64,000 nucleotides of DNA, taken from positions 2,464,001 through 2,528,000 of the forward strand of contig OZ241863.1 in the NCBI GenBank assembly GCA_965203055.1. The letters are read 5' to 3'. The position numbers are program-made. The DNA comes from Spirochaetia bacterium (GTDB lineage: Bacteria; Spirochaetota; Spirochaetia; SZUA-6; Bin103). This document shows, one piece after another, positions 48,001-54,000 of this stretch (position 1 is the stretch's first letter; every line of letters begins with the position of its first letter).

Positions 48001-51000
48001 GAGCTGGTGCACGCCAGCGTCTGGGTGCGGCGCGTGGCGCGCGCGAACCCGGCCGCGGTATGCACCATCGACTGCTCGTTGCGGGTCTGATAGTAGGGCA
48101 GCGCGCCCCCGCTCTGCTCCAGGGCCTGCCCCAGACCGCATACGTTGCCATGGCCGAAGATGCCGAACATGGCCGGTATCAGCCGCCGCCGGGCGCCGTC
48201 CAGCTCGCTGTACTGAACCGCCAGGTACTTCACCACCGCCTGCCCCATGGTGAGGCGTTCCGTTTCCTGACCGCCGGTCAGGCGTTGCGTCTGCGCCATG
48301 CTCCTCTCCCTGCTGGGCGGTGACGGACTCGAACCGCCGACCACCTGGGTGTAAACCAGGTGCTCTACCAACTGAGCTAACCGCCCGCGTCACGCCCGCT
48401 GCGCCGGCACGCTATCCGCCGCGCGCCCGGCTGTCAAACCGCCGCCGGCCGGCCGAACCGGCGCGCGGCGCTCATACTATGGCCGTCACGAGCGCGTGAG
48501 CACCTCTACTTGCGTCAGAAATTCTTCGTCGGCGCGGCATTGCACCAGCCGGTCGCCGATATCGGCCAGTTGCTCCGGGTCCACGACGTTGGCCAACAGA
48601 ACCGCCAGACGTTCGCTCGTCTCCGCCCCGAACCGCAACGCCGCCATACGGCAGAGCAGCGCCCGTTCGTGTTCAAGCCCCTGCTCGAGGCCCCGCTCAA
48701 GCCCCTGCTCGAGGCCCCGCTCAAGCCCCCGCTCGAGCCCCTGCTCGAGACCCCGCTCGAGCCCCTGCTCGAGCCCCAGCTTGCGGCCTTGCTCAAGGCC
48801 CTGCTCGCGGCCTTCCCGCATCCACTGCGCGGGCCACTCCCTCAAGCGTTCTTGCAGCATCATCCGTACCTCCTCCAGACTGTCCATCGCCGGCAGCTCC
48901 TCACCGGCCGGCTTGACCTGCTCCATCGAACTCGTCAGCCAGTCGATGAACACCCGTCGCAACTCTACGTTCTCCGACCCCTCCAGCCGCTCCGGCAGCG
49001 CGTTCGCGACCCGTATCAGGTCCGCCTCCGTGCGGCTCTGTTCCAACCCGATCACCGCTCCCATCAGATTGTCGCTCGGCACCTCATCCGCGGCTACGTG
49101 CTGCTCCTCGATCACCAGGTAGCGCTGCGCTGGCTGGTACGGCGCCAGTCCCTCCTCCACCGGCGTGATCAGTTCGCCGATCTCCCGCGGCGCCCGCCAC
49201 CGCGGCGTGCCGTTGTACAGCACGATGGGCAGCACCGCCGGCAGCGCCTCGCGCGCCTCCGGCGCCGCATTGCGCACCAGTTCCTGGTACAGCATGCCGG
49301 TGTAGATCAGAATGCGCAGCGCCATGTAGTGATCGTCGCGCGACTGGAACTCAAGCAGCAACAACAGGTAGGCCCAACCGCCGCCGGGCACGCGCAGCCG
49401 CCATACGGTGTCGCCGTGACGTTTGAGCAATTCGTCGCTGACGTAATCTGACGACAACTTCCGCAGCGTCGAGAAGTCGCTGGCGCCGAGTTGACCGACG
49501 AAGGCGCGTACCAAGTCCTCTACCATGCGCGGGAAGGCGAACAGCTTCTTGTACTGCTCGTCGTACTTGGCGCCGGTCTCGCGTGCGGGTGCCATCTTTC
49601 AGCATCGTAGCACAGGGACCGGCGACCGTGAGTCAAGCGGCTGATCGGGAGATCCGTTACCGCTTCGGCGTTGTCAAGGGGTCACTCGTCCCCGCCTACC
49701 TGCACCCGAAGCTGCTGGCCGGCCAGGGTCTGGCGCGCCCAGAACAGGTTCTGGCTCGCGTCGTTGCCGCCCGCCGCCAGGATGGCGGTGCCGGTCGCGG
49801 TGGTGCCGCCGCCCGGCGCCGCCGTAAAGGTCACCGTCGGGGCGGTCACGTAGCCGCTCCCCCCGTTGGTGATCTCCACCGACCGGATGACGTATTCGAA
49901 GACCGCGGTGCCGACCGCGGTGGTGGCGCCGGTCGGCGCCGCCGTAAAGGAGACGGTCGGGGCGGAGGTGTAGCCGCTGCCGGGGTTGGTGACCGTCGCC
50001 GTCGGGACGGCGTAGGCCATCACCGCGGTGGCGGTCGCCCCGCTGCCGCCGCCGCCGGTAAGGGAGACGGTGGGCGCCGAGGTGTAGCCGCTGCCGGCGG
50101 TGCCGGGCGTCACCGAGGCGACCCCGTAGTTCATCACCGCGGTGCCGGTCGCCGCGGTGCCGGACGACGGCGTCGAAAAGGTCACGGTGGGGGCCGAGGT
50201 GTAGCCGCTCCCCCCGGCGGTGACCGTCACCTCATCTGCCTCGACGACCACGGTCGCGGTGGCGGCCGCCCCGCTGCCGCCGCCGCCGGAGAAGGAGACG
50301 GTGGGCGCCGAGGTGTAGCCGCTTCCGCCGCTGGTGACGTCAACCCCGGTGATGGTGCTGCCCATCACCGCGCGGTAGCCGGCCCCGCTGCCGCCGCCGC
50401 CGGTAAAGGTGATCGTGGGAGCGGAGGTGTAGCCGCTCCCCGCGTTGGTGACGTCGACCCCTCGAATGTTGGAGTACATTCTCACGTTGAACGTTGCCCC
50501 CGTGCCTACCGTAATGGAGACCGTGGGGGGCGAGGTGTAGCCGCGCCCCCGGTTGGTGAATACGAGGCGGTCCGCCCGCCCGTCTGAATGCCTGCTCAAG
50601 GTGGCGGTTGCCCTGGTGCCGCCGGACGGCGGCGCCGAAAGGGTCACGACGGAGGCCGACGTGTAACCGCTGCCGTCGGCGGTTTTCGGCGCGCTCTGGA
50701 CGGCGTCGGGCCCCCACGCGGTGCCGGTCGCGGTGGTGCCGCCGGCCCGTTGTGGGGCCGAGAAGGTCGCGGTCGGGACCGAGGTGTAGCCGCTCCCGTA
50801 CTGATTGCCGATCCTCGTCACGGAAGCGACGCTGTCGGGCCCGGTCGCGGCGGCGGCCGCGCCGCTGCCGCCGCCGCCGGAGAAGGAGACGGTGGGGGGC
50901 GAGGTGTAGCCGCTGCCGGCGTTCCCGACCGACACCGAAGTGACGGCCCCGCGTGTCGTCGCGGTGGCGGTAGCTCCGCTGCCGCCGCCGCCCGAAATGG

Positions 51001-54000
51001 TGACCGTGGGCGCCCCCGTATAGCCCGATCCCCGGGTATCGAGCGTCACGTCAGCGACGCTGCCGCTGAGCGCCGCGGTGCCGGCCGCATCGGTGCCGCC
51101 GGACGGCGCCGCCGAGAAGGAGACGGTGGGCGCCGACGTGTAGCCGCTGCCGGCGGTATCGACGTTCACCGAAGTGACGCTGCCGCTGATATCCGGGGTG
51201 GCGGCCGCGCCGCTGCCGCCGCCGCCGGAAAAGGAGATGGTGGGCGCCGAGGTGTAGCCGGCGCCGGCGGTCGTGACGTTCACCGAACCGACGCCGCCGC
51301 CGCCCGCTACGTCGGCGGTTGCCCGGGTGCCGCCGGCCGGCGGCGGAGCAAGGGTCACGGTGGGCGCCGAGGTGTAGCCGCTGCCCCGCTCGGTAATCCT
51401 GACCGACGCGACGGTGTCCGAGGCCCCAGACTGATCCGGGGCGGTGAGCACCAGCACGATCGCGCCCGCGCTCACTTCGGCGCCAACCGTCCACTGCGCG
51501 CCTGAGATGTCGCCGGCGAAGGTCGGCGCGGTCGCCGTGCTCGTGAACGGCAGCTCGTTGCCGCCGATCGACACGGTCACCTTCTCGCCCTCGGCGCCGG
51601 TGATCCCGTCCCAGGCGAACGGCTCGGAGCGGATCGTCGAGAGGCTCGGGTCCGCTGCGTCAGGCAGCGGCAGCGCCGATGACCAAGCATCCTCTCCCAG
51701 GGGCCAGCTCTTCGTGGCCGCCGGAGTCGGGGCCGGCGCGGTCGGCGACCCGCCATTGCCGCCGGCGCCGCCGCCGGCTCCGTTTCCGCCCGCGCCGCCG
51801 GCGCCCGTACCGCCGGTCGCGCCCGGCCGGGCCGTCTGCTGGCACGCCAGCAGGGCGATGCCGATGACTGCCGCCAGCGCCAGGAGCGCTGCCTTGCCGC
51901 TCATCCCCTTGACCCTCGCCGGCCGGAGCTGCCGAGGTCGGCCCGAATCTTTCGGTTCATGGGGGGGGGGGGTAAGCGTAAGCTCGTTGTCGTTACCGGT
52001 CATTCAGAGTACTCCCAAAGCTGGATTCGGAATACGACGCGCATAATCAATCTATTGGCCACTGCCGGCGGCCGTCAAGAGTGCGCGGCAACGGCGGCAA
52101 CGGCGCGGCGTTGTCCGGGGCCGGCCCAAGCACGTAGTATAGGGCGCGATGGATAAGCTGAGAGCGAGCCGCACGGCTCGGTGCGCGGGCCTCACGGGTC
52201 TGTTCGGGGTGCTGGCCGGGGTTCCGGCGTTCGCCCAGGAGGCGTCGGCGGCGAACCAGATCGCCGCCATCATCACCGGCGTCGATACGCTGTGGGTGCT
52301 GATGGCCGCGTTTCTGGTGTTTCTGATGCAGGCCGGGTTCGGCATGCTGGAGGCCGGCCTGATCCGCGCCAAGAACACCGCCAACATCCTGATGAAGAAC
52401 CTGATGGACTTCTGCATGGCCTCGCTCGGTTTCTTCATCTTCGGCTACGCGATCATGTTCGGCTCCGGCAATCCGCTGTTCGGCACTTCGGGTTGGCTGC
52501 TGCTCGGCGCCGAGTCCGCGGCGGACGTGCCGCTGTTCGCCTTCTGGCTGTTCCAGGCGGTGTTCGTCGGCGCCGCCGCCACCATCGTGGCCGGCGGCAT
52601 GGCCGAGCGGATGAAGTTTCCGGCCTACGTGATCTACTCGTTTCTGATCTCCGCGTTCGTCTATCCGGTGGTCGGCCACTGGGTGTGGGGCGGCGGCTGG
52701 CTGGCCGGCCTGGGCTTTACCGACTTTGCCGGCTCCACCGTGGTGCACGCGGTCGGCGGCTGGGCCGCCTTCATCGGCACCCGCTGCCTGGGTCCGCGCA
52801 TCGGCAAGTTCAGTCCCGACGGCAAGCCCAACGTGATCGAGGGACACTCCCTGCCGCTCGCTTCTCTGGGGATGTTCCTGTTGTGGTTCGGCTGGTTCGG
52901 CTTCAACCCCGGCTCCACCCTGGGGGTCGGCGACGGCTCCCTCATCGCCCGCGTCGCCATCAACACCAACCTCGCCGCGGCCGCCGGGGCAATCGCGGCC
53001 ACCGCCGCGGTCTGGCTGACGGCCGGCAAGCCCGACCTCACCATGGGGATGAACGGCGCCCTGGCCGGACTGGTGGCGATCACCGCGCCGTGCGCGTTCG
53101 TGGAACCGGGGCACGCGATACTGATCGGGCTGATCGGCGGCGTGATCGTGGTGTTCGGAGTGTTCTACCTCGACCGCCATCGCGTCGACGACCCGGTGGG
53201 AGCCATCGCAGTGCACGGCATGAACGGCATCTGGGGAACCCTGGCGGTGGGCATCTGGGGGCAGGCTGCGTTGGGCGTCCCCAACGACGGCCTGTGGTAC
53301 GGCGGCGGCTTTGGCCAGCTCGGGGTGCAGCTGCTCGGCACGGTCACCGTGAGCGTGTTCATCATCGTCGCCATGGGGCTCATCTTCAAGCTGATCGACC
53401 GGGTGGTAGGTCTGCGCGTGCCGCGTGAGGAAGAGTTGAAGGGCCTGGACGTCGCCGAACACGGCGCCGACGCCTACGGCGGCTTCCAGGTGTTTTCCAC
53501 CGAGTAGCGCCCGCCCGGCAGGGCGGTCAGCGGTTCAGGTCGACGTGCTTGCCGGTGGTGACGTAGATCACCGCCTCGCAGATGTTGGTGGCGTGATCGC
53601 CGGCGCGCTCCAGTTGCTTGGCCACGAACAGCAGCGACGACGCCTGGGTGATGTTGCGCGGGGTCTCCATCATGTAGGTGAGCAGCTCGCGGAACAGGTG
53701 CGAGTAGGTCTCGTCCACCTTGTTGTCGCGGGCGCTGACCTGTTCCGCCAGGGCGCTGTCCTGGGTCACGAAGCTGCGCACCGAGTCGCGCAGCATGGCG
53801 CAGGTCTCGTCGGCCATCAACGGTATCGCGATCAGTTCCTTGATGAGCTGCTCGGAGGCCAGCCGTTGCGCAACCCGCGCCATGTGCACCGCCAGGTCGC
53901 CGGTCCGCTCCAGTTGCGCGATGACGTTGAGCGTGCCGACGATCTGCCGCAGGTCGGTGGCTACCGGCTGCTCGGTGGCGAGCAGCCGCACGCAGGAGTC

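Follow-up and report, generated by a model that had tools for sequence, protein, structure and literature searches.

Recent rpn insertions in the chromosome of a sponge-associated bacterium: one-gene units of the Rpn family at variable intergenic sites

Free-standing homing endonuclease genes of phages usually belong to the HNH or GIY-YIG type, and their homing depends on a cognate site with homologous flanks in a co-resident genome. IS91/ISCR elements encode HUH rolling-circle transposases and have defined ori and ter ends. For the rpn genes, the sections of Zhong et al. (2023, PMC10400941) drawn on here describe an IS-like gain and loss without inverted repeats or target duplications, units whose ends vary, a tendency to cluster with defence genes and genomes with as many as 26 copies; in the same sections, an autonomous transposase of this fold is said not to be known. 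RpnA itself is reported to cut non-specifically. The rpn genes of the genome studied here are best explained, from their domain content and conserved residues, as members of this known phage-defence family. Most of their behaviour is already in print, and the genome represents an unusually rich and recent form of it.

The DNA analysed, referred to below as the window, comprises 64,000 nucleotides of the chromosome of a sponge-associated bacterium (C1:2464001-2528000). At window positions 48466..52100 lies a lineage-specific insertion of approximately 3.6 kb, composed of an rpn gene and a lipoprotein gene and located between tRNA-Val and the ammonium transporter gene amt. This stretch had been proposed to be an insertion in the first-pass annotation, and comparison with the relatives confirms this to the base, the closest of them, G010, having only 14 nt between the counterparts of 48465 and 52101. 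The positions given there hold as window coordinates, whereas the contig offset does not. On the left, the thiamine-pyrophosphate enzyme gene (46332..48263, minus strand; Pfam TPP_enzyme N, M and C domains) is syntenic in eight relatives, and the tRNA-Val(TAC) gene detected by ARAGORN (48314..48386, minus strand) and its 79 nt of upstream sequence form the conserved border of the insertion: the block from 48314 to 48440/48468 is kept at 80-96% in seven relatives. On the right, amt (52149..53507, plus strand; PF00909, E 7e-129) is likewise syntenic in eight relatives.

The same slot is filled by an MscS gene in G001, G005, G007 and G008 and by an HNH gene in G003. No rpn was found by tblastn in these five longer alternative fillings, and none of the relatives carries rpn at the syntenic site. 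The junctions of the filled form are bridged by contigs of independent runs, two for the left and two for the right, and the empty-site form was not seen in four metagenome runs, which therefore give no sign of ongoing mobility. Neither at the focal site nor at L031, a site whose insertion consists of rpn alone, can a target-site duplication be seen in a comparison with relatives that are 10-15% diverged and whose spacers are unalignable. The focal stretch is best explained as two gene units, each repeated separately in the genome, that were recently inserted into a variable intergenic slot beside tRNA-Val.

The focal rpn gene (48486..49595, minus strand; GC3 0.85) encodes a protein of 369 aa, assigned to subfamily 0, in which an N-terminal PD-(D/E)XK nuclease domain precedes a variable C-terminal one. 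The nuclease domain, PF04754, is the only one found (E 1.5e-21; 77.4 bits vs a cut-off of 21), and 56 of the 57 PF04754 matches in the genome lie above the gathering cut-off. In the NCBIfam scan, which covered only the focal subfamily, the most divergent one, the protein falls below the Rpn subfamily model TIGR01784 (32.5 vs 52.1 bits) and far below the RpnA equivalog model (26.9 vs a cut-off of 583). The catalytic residues are intact: D12, D62, E82, Q84 and R94 correspond to D11, D63, E82, Q84 and R94 of RpnA, and among 48 paralogues D12 is kept in 45 and the other four in all 48. In the portion of Kingston et al. (2017, PMC5350276) used here, the first four RpnA residues are described as essential and R94 as affecting activity. 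The median dN/dS among the rpn paralogues is 0.34. On these sequence grounds, each copy would encode an RpnL-type PD-(D/E)XK endonuclease toxin.

The C-terminal domain contains a run of about 9-10 four-residue repeats of the GLEQ/GLER type, identified in the translation (48672..48821, minus strand), which corresponds to the hypervariable RpnL/RpnS dimerisation helix of the family described in Zhong et al. (2023, PMC10400941). Repeats of the QEGR, EQGL or EQGR type number 3-9 in subfamily 0 and 1-13 in the others, varying within every subfamily, and across the rpn copies a Met stands 8-20 residues upstream of them. Furthermore, the only consensus promoter match between 48380 and 49760, for which shuffled sequences give a mean of 0.1, is the site TGGACA-16-GATGAT inside the gene (48859..48886, minus strand). 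It overlaps Met245/246, with Met258 downstream, and these three residues precede the repeats by 6-20 positions. By analogy with E. coli rpn, a small RpnS antitoxin may start in this region; such an antitoxin would probably be provided by the variable domain of each rpn gene in addition to the toxin. Upstream of the gene, an alignment of eight subfamily-0 genes delimits a common block (49596..49640, minus strand) with TTGACT at 49631-49636, followed 21 nt later by TACGAT, 8 nt before the ATG. A sigma-70-like pair had previously been placed at this 5' limit; before the focal rpn, the consensus scan calls no canonical sigma-70 promoter.

The second gene of the insertion (49682..52003, minus strand) encodes a predicted lipoprotein of 773 aa, recognised in the translation by its lipobox L-A-C. 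It consists in part of some 17 repeats of a GSGYTSAPTV-type unit, has a GC3 of 0.90 and matches no Pfam or NCBIfam model. Its family occupies 31 loci in this genome according to tblastn, and a genome of another genus holds a 93%-identical copy in which the similarity spans the ORF only. A gene that encodes no nuclease thus also shows similarity ending at the gene ends, even between genera, which indicates that sharp limits need not stem from Rpn action.

Depending on the threshold, the genome contains 57 PF04754 matches (E<=0.001), 49 (E<=1e-15) or 48 (match of at least 480 nt), the last being full-length copies distributed over eight subfamilies; the first-pass annotation had given 53 genes. 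Over the first 800 columns, identity between non-local copies reaches 97-98%, their flanks being unrelated, and no non-tandem pair exceeds about 98%. As the first-pass annotation had proposed, the rpn genes are discrete one-gene units; they measure about 1.05-1.2 kb and are made of the upstream block and the ORF. In every subfamily the 5' limit is the -35-like hexamer, approximately 40-70 nt before the ATG; of 186 non-local pairs, 158 start at the 5' limit of their subfamily and none inside the gene, and 123 have their end no more than 60 nt from the stop. Calculated from the 94 directed pairs among these with at least 88% identity, the median 3' limit is +3 nt past the stop (quartiles -150 and +11.5). 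This agrees with the earlier downstream extension of 8 nt and contradicts the statement that similarity stops 40-120 nt after the stop codon. Conservation ends about 0-8 nt past the stop in most subfamilies, and the 3' end shows no structured attC site of the kind that integron gene cassettes carry. The absence of terminal inverted repeats noted before is upheld, since complementarity of the unit ends reaches p<=0.05 in 2 of 48 genes, with 2.4 expected by chance.

Such limits could also arise as an artefact of concerted evolution, if gene conversion, among paralogues and with DNA acquired from neighbouring symbionts, homogenised old, independently gained copies only as far as the ORF homology reaches. 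Between genera, similarity of 85-93% is indeed confined to the rpn and lipoprotein ORFs, housekeeping genes being at about 75%; 48 of the 186 pairs lose similarity in the 3' part of the gene in a mosaic pattern, and in 10 of 101 pairs the exact runs are longer than in permutations. However, long identical tracts are not in excess in the remaining 91 pairs, the edges of the rpn-only insertions coincide with the limits of similarity, and the loci are absent from relatives in all 21 cases described below, so the copies are not old residents. This reading is regarded as improbable.

The census covered all 22 singleton rpn loci, not selected by their flanks, against 5-10 genomes of the same genus. 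At each of the 21 testable loci, rpn is missing from the syntenic place; the first-pass annotation had given 16 of 16 for one sister genome. At ten loci one relative or more has no more than 250 nt, and for several of these loci the same holds in multiple outgroups; four insertions of 1.23-1.54 kb consist of rpn alone. The six sites previously called clean were reproduced (14-146 nt in the relative vs 2.7-4.0 kb here, five with rpn last), as was the 3.8-kb HNH case; the exceptional locus g03297 was recovered to the base, with 413 nt and flanks at distant places in the relative. The direction of change is insertion. Ancestral presence followed by deletion in the relatives could be entertained where only G010 keeps both flanks, as at L042 and L045, where one comparison gives no direction. 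Several outgroups, however, are empty at L031 (5/5 relatives), L048 (6/7) and L022 (4/5), and at L055 the flanking blocks abut in two relatives; these sites indicate insertion here rather than deletion in the sister. Moreover, four relatives have an MscS gene instead at the focal site, and the median paralogue dS (0.17) is below that of orthologues with G010 (0.27-0.36). Deletion is therefore highly improbable, and the data support the rpn loci as recent, lineage-specific insertions.

The orientation of rpn at the island edges is less regular than it first appeared. Eleven of 13 earlier distances from the rpn stop to the break of synteny were reproduced within 2 nt (20, 161, 26, 70, 238/239, 162/163, 65, 17, 128/129, 22 and 53 nt), but where the earlier frequency was 13 of 16, the census finds a break no more than 250 nt from the stop, with the 3' end at the edge, in only 13 of 21 loci. 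In addition, a terminal gene of any kind automatically yields a short distance. Among the 17 multi-gene islands, rpn is terminal with its 3' end outward in ten, terminal in the other direction in three and internal in four. The arrangement is thus often seen, without being a rule; it is a tendency of marginal statistical weight (sign test 10 vs 3, two-sided p = 0.09). Where pairs share additional flank, those sharing only upstream DNA and ending at the stop (16) are not clearly commoner than those sharing only downstream DNA (11), and counting by genes gives 13 vs 11.

These data bear on the reading of the rpn cassette as an autonomous mobile element, in which Rpn would excise or copy a unit with a fixed end after the stop and variable upstream cargo, that is, by one-ended capture. 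Consistent with this are the eight subfamily bursts with defined limits, the four rpn-only insertions, the 3'-outward position of 10 of the 13 terminal rpn genes, the catalytic residues kept in 45-48 of 48 copies, and a 4.2-kb methylase-rpn segment copied at 95-96% identity, which ends 8 nt past the rpn stop and 17-26 nt from the conserved flank. Against it stand the lack of terminal repeats, and of target duplications at the sites inspected, the symmetry of the shared flanks, the seven reversed or internal islands, the equal gene-end limits of a non-nuclease family and the cutting by RpnA without sequence specificity; Zhong et al. (2023, PMC10400941) likewise found no evidence of autonomous transposition. 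Such a mechanism is rather unlikely. The bolder claim, that the units are recently active one-protein mobile elements of an unrecognised kind, lacking terminal repeats and able to carry upstream DNA, is doubtful to a similar degree; if true, a PD-(D/E)XK nuclease would move its own unit and thereby build defence islands, and this genome would supply intact copies with defined ends for a first direct test of Rpn mobility.

At 11 of the 21 sites the relatives carry other DNA, which identifies these sites as hot spots and favours the hot-spot alternative already raised in the first-pass annotation; rpn is absent from all 12 fillings examined. The annotated fillings are mostly defence or selfish genes (among them HNH, IS4 transposase, AlbA_2/Schlafen ATPases, AAA_21/AAA_15 ATPase, DUF433), and in this genome rpn is accompanied by restriction-modification methylases, HsdS, Uma2, HNH and IS elements.

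Taken as a whole, the likely explanation is that rpn units encoding toxin/antitoxin pairs of the Rpn family have multiplied and entered hot spots by illegitimate recombination. Eight subfamilies would have expanded since this lineage parted from its nearest sequenced relative, and their copies would have been placed by recombination needing no end repeats in intergenic slots that hold other defence or selfish genes in related genomes. Later arrivals may then accumulate on the promoter side of rpn, leaving it often, but not always, last in the island with its 3' end outward. As to how the ends are joined, the tentative and somewhat doubtful best guess is that Rpn itself makes the breaks or nicks and that these are closed by microhomology or primer-template switching, a route proposed for E. 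coli RpnA. Intact copies would in that case be retained through addiction and a benefit in defence.

Compared with known systems, the genes most closely resemble the E. coli RpnL-RpnS systems (YhgA-like, PF04754/COG5464; Kingston 2017, PMC5350276; Zhong 2023, PMC10400941), with which they share the Pfam family, the catalytic residues, a C-terminal domain that varies, with the number of four-residue repeats differing between copies, and a candidate internal start, as well as many paralogues, single-gene presence or absence between relatives without inverted repeats, and a defence-gene neighbourhood. They differ in their number (about 49 copies in 4.56 Mb, against a maximum of 26 in that paper), in forming eight subfamilies, in which non-local copies reach 97-98% identity, in limits that are sharp, from the -35-like hexamer to the stop, rather than variable, in being mostly dispersed instead of tandem, and in a focal protein under the NCBIfam subfamily cut-off. 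As among insertion sequences, near-identical dispersed copies have common 5' and 3' limits. Free-standing homing endonucleases of phages are similar as one-gene nuclease units with an upstream block, without terminal repeats and, at the sites inspected here, with no visible target duplication, in intergenic sites empty in relatives; in contrast, rpn copies are spread over about 33 unrelated loci, and non-specific cutting is reported for RpnA. The fixed end past the 3' end of the gene and the variable capture on the other side, as originally described for this genome, recall one-ended transposition of IS91/ISCR, but Rpn is a PD-(D/E)XK nuclease, no HUH (Rep-like) transposase was found in the focal protein, only PF04754, and the asymmetry is weak (islands 10:3:4; pairs 16 vs 11). 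Finally, defence islands and integration hot spots likewise hold different defence or selfish genes in the same slots, with restriction-modification, HNH, Uma2 and IS genes beside rpn; the present sites differ from them in that neither an att site nor an integrase, for which no search was made, is evident, and in that a tRNA is close by for only 2 of the 48 rpn genes.

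The window corresponds to positions 2464001-2528000 of a single 4.56-Mb contig (C1, 69% G+C), in which the focal rpn gene (window positions 48486-49595, minus strand) matches PF04754 with an E-value of 1.5e-21. It is accompanied by a minus-strand ORF of 773 aa (49682-52003) with a lipobox, about 17 repeats of the GSGYTSAPTV type and a GC3 of 0.90, for which no match was found in Pfam, NCBIfam or ESM Atlas. The two genes lie between a minus-strand tRNA-Val(TAC) (48314-48386), next to a minus-strand gene for a thiamine-pyrophosphate (TPP) enzyme (46332-48263/48371), and the plus-strand ammonium transporter gene amt (52149-53507). 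In the closest relative, G010, whose flanks are 85-91% identical to the focal ones, the counterparts of positions 48465 and 52101 are separated by 14 nt, in exact agreement with the insertion limits set by the first-pass annotation. The same site contains an HNH gene in G003 and an MscS gene, with a PhyH gene further left, in four other same-genus genomes (G001, G005, G007 and G008); tblastn found no rpn in these five longer fillings. The order seen in the last four genomes (loci L015-L018), with TPP enzyme, PhyH dioxygenase, tRNA-Val, MscS channel and amt, is apparently ancestral. Since PhyH and MscS are both missing from the genome under study and from G010, the spot has a history of both gene loss and gene gain.

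The focal site was also compared, over 46000-54500, with metagenome contigs of four runs from four studies. Both the left and the right junctions of the filled form are bridged by contigs of two runs (X13 and X1), and contigs of X15 and X5 start 72 nt within the right end. No contig in the four runs connects 48466 with 52100, and the sole joint across the region, from 48646 to 51758, was discarded as unreliable, its shorter side comprising 21 letters. Consequently, the empty-site form is without evidence in these runs, and contigs of this kind are unable to show its absence.

A synteny census covered all 22 single-rpn loci, with 11-16 kb searched around each; the approximately 11 clustered loci, including those of a cluster at 789-826 kb, were left out. 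Twelve loci were compared with five same-genus genomes (the focal one with 30 relatives) and ten with ten same-genus genomes. One locus, L044, consists of repeats throughout and was untestable. At all 21 remaining loci, rpn is absent from the site in every relative that keeps a flank, and at ten the site measures at most 250 nt in at least one relative. In addition to the 14 nt at the focal locus, these short sites span 53, 179, 219 and 237 nt in four genomes (L022), 25-66 nt in five of five (L031), 146 nt (L040), 34 nt (L042), 48 nt (L045), 66-230 nt in six of seven (L048), 228 nt (L049) and 124 nt (L052), while at L055 no gap separates the flanking blocks in two genomes. Such short or empty sites indicate that the changes are insertions in the lineage under study. 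The distance from the rpn stop codon to the break of synteny is at most 250 nt at 13 loci (17, 17-26, 20, 22, 53, 65, 70, 105, 116, 129, 161, 163 and 239 nt), 413 nt at one and 1.25-3.4 kb at seven. Four insertions consist of rpn only (1.23, 1.27, 1.35 and 1.54 kb), and their 5' edges are within about 20-60 nt of the limit of paralogue similarity.

The insertion sites are shared hot spots: at 11 of the 21, one or more relatives have other DNA, 0.4-12 kb long, and L055 has five different fillings in five relatives and is empty in two. The ORFs annotated in a subset of these fillings include those for HNH proteins, an IS4-type transposase, AlbA_2/Schlafen-type ATPases, an AAA_21/AAA_15 ATPase, DUF433 and DUF6772; a tblastn search with 48 Rpn proteins found no rpn in 12 fillings of relatives' sites. 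In the genome under study, rpn neighbours include restriction-modification methylases, HsdS, Uma2, a 1.6-kb HNH element and IS256- and ISL3-type transposases. Association with tRNA genes is not above chance (2 of 48 rpn genes vs 1.6 expected). A gene of the lipoprotein family lies directly 5' of five rpn genes, where chance predicts about 0.4. This repeat-rich, predicted lipoprotein family, which resembles no known family, occupies 31 loci, including window 49682-52003 and 3709-5487. Copies of the HNH-endonuclease element number 20-25 or more, at 86-95% identity; they include window 1979-3438 and genome positions 2557504-2559054, and the element lies beside rpn in at least two islands.

PF04754 has 57 matches in this genome, 49 of them at E≤1e-15 and 48 full-length, the latter falling into eight subfamilies of 8, 8, 8, 6, 5, 5, 5 and 3 genes. 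Same-family relatives with contiguous assemblies hold 4-39 copies and genomes outside the family 0-5; one contig scan gave three loci, all within one record, which says nothing of the wider spread. Residues D62, E82, Q84 and R94 are kept in all 48 copies and D12 in 45; according to passages of Kingston et al. (2017, PMC5350276), mutation of their counterparts in E. coli RpnA inactivates or alters the nuclease. The median dN/dS of the nuclease domain is 0.34, and the median dS between paralogues is 0.17 (77 pairs) vs 0.27-0.36 for three flank orthologues with G010. Separately, a 36-kb cluster at 789000-826000 contains about 12 rpn genes and fragments, which belong to three subfamilies, and shows segmental duplications within it.

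The limits of the repeated unit were mapped in 186 directed pairs, each non-local, drawn from within a subfamily and at least 80% identical. On the 5' side, similarity begins at a common subfamily limit in 158 pairs, farther upstream in 28 and inside the gene in none. On the 3' side, it stops within 60 nt of the stop codon in 123 pairs, past that in 15 and inside the gene, in the variable C-terminus, in 48. In the alignments, the unit starts at a -35-like hexamer and, in most subfamilies, ends 0-8 nt past the stop codon. Over the first 800 columns, non-local copies are up to 97-98% identical, and their flanks are unrelated. Patchy gene conversion was considered and rejected, as identical tracts exceed the permutation level in only 10 of 101 pairs. 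Together, the high identity beside unrelated flanks and the scarcity of long tracts argue that these limits are real unit ends rather than merely the edges of decayed old flanks. No terminal inverted repeats were found at the unit ends of the 48 genes; nine of them have direct repeats linking the two ends at p≤0.05, mostly as a GC-rich word of 13-18 nt in subfamily 1. Some caution is warranted in reading the limits, which are likewise placed at the gene ends in the non-nuclease lipoprotein gene. In a genome of another genus, similarity is confined to the ORFs, at 85-88% identity for rpn and 93% for the lipoprotein gene, compared with about 75% for housekeeping genes; the lipoprotein value points to a recent exchange between genera.

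A 70-nt block with 28 occurrences, 24 of them within 500 nt of rpn, was initially taken for an end motif. It corresponds to the upstream block and first codons of subfamily-3-type rpn, left as a remnant before subfamily-1 and subfamily-5 genes, and was therefore dismissed as such a motif. Upstream of the complete rpn in subfamily 5 (for example at 815271-815410 and 819327-819544) and in five of eight subfamily-1 genes (for example at 2699636-2699871) lies a remnant from a different type of rpn. In addition to the upstream block and the ATG, the remnant retains about 14 codons in subfamily 5 and about 45-55 degenerate ones in subfamily 1, and these chimeras of adjacent rpn genes were subsequently copied as units. 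Solo upstream blocks with an identical end base occur at 608066-608123, 3' of an rpn gene, and at 1273333-1273395, far from any. Regarding subfamily 0, to which the focal gene belongs, two copies (1336300-1337412 and 1345904-1347052) are 96% identical, inverted and 10 kb apart, and share about 120-150 nt with each other on either side. Downstream of each is a paralogue of one convergent gene, which is likewise found after the rpn at 258562-259644. The arrangement reflects a segmental duplication or, alternatively, spreading directed by homology on one side only.

The first-pass annotation held that rpn marks the end of insertions, a rule that gave the arrangement its striking look. In 17 multi-gene islands, rpn is terminal with its 3' end outward in 10, terminal with its 5' end outward in three (L049, L052 and L055) and internal in four (L033, L036, L037 and L045). 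From the number of genes in each island, about 6 of 17 would roughly be expected, and a sign test of 10 vs 3 yields a two-sided p of 0.09. The tendency thus survives, in weaker form than first described, and the strict rule does not: the 3' end of rpn modestly prefers to face the conserved flank. Counting subfamily-2 rpn and an HsdS-like gene as one unit, a post hoc regrouping, changes the tally to 11 : 2 : 3. A fixed 3' end is best supported by one case, a 4.2-kb methylase and rpn segment, syntenic at L049, whose copy at L025 (95-96% identity) ends 8 nt past the rpn stop codon, 17-26 nt short of the conserved flank. Rough neighbour-orientation counts from a crude GC3-based gene caller (2875 genes, with some low-GC3 genes missed) were kept out of these conclusions.

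The HsdS-like genes (Methylase_S) are co-directional with subfamily-2 rpn and lie 69-81 nt downstream of it, the two pairs being located at 2114773-2117207 (L037) and 4358311-4360640 (L055). They have a low GC content (0.58), encode 397-409 aa and are 33-45% identical to each other. At L055 the pair forms the entire 2.39-kb insertion, and a third rpn (L045) is associated with a broken HsdS-like remnant (2940486-2941103). Possibly the two genes work as a module that combines the Rpn nuclease with a specificity subunit.

Overall, the first-pass observation of bounded rpn cassettes in lineage-specific insertions is real and well measured. How rpn spreads has been a question since 2017; its behaviour resembles that of insertion sequences without their hallmarks, and the E. 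coli copies have an eroded look. The present genome supplies about 48 intact copies in eight young subfamilies, with their limits mapped, empty sites dated and four insertions made of rpn alone, and its cassettes are concrete material for testing mobility, toxicity and neutralisation by RpnS, the small C-terminal antitoxin. Furthermore, the rpn slots are shared hot spots for defence genes in this sponge-associated bacterial group. Self-mobilisation of rpn appears unlikely.

Kingston et al. (2017, PMC5350276) show RpnA to be a non-specific nuclease promoting RecA-independent recombination, and suggest that the family represents eroded mobile elements relevant to island assembly. Zhong et al. 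(2023, PMC10400941) report single-gene gain and loss "similar to insertion sequences", without inverted repeats or target duplications and with variable ends, up to 26 copies and clustering with defence genes; they found no evidence that rpn transposes autonomously. Among the matches listed by one literature search on the Rpn family, none dealt with a fixed-end or polar arrangement. Every subfamily here carries a run of four-residue repeats, 1-13 in number depending on the copy, and a Met precedes the run by 8-20 residues. For the focal rpn, a consensus scan recognised no promoter in the upstream block, and the lone promoter-like match falls within the gene, shortly before the repeat/Met region. 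The repeat run, upstream Met and internal promoter-like site are marks of the toxin-antitoxin pair of full-length RpnL and RpnS, as described in parts of Zhong et al. (2023, PMC10400941). Next to this published work, neither the family nor its habit of arriving singly and without the hallmarks of transposons is new; this genome adds an unusually large, young and sharply bounded copy set, together with the locus-by-locus demonstration of insertion at shared hot spots.
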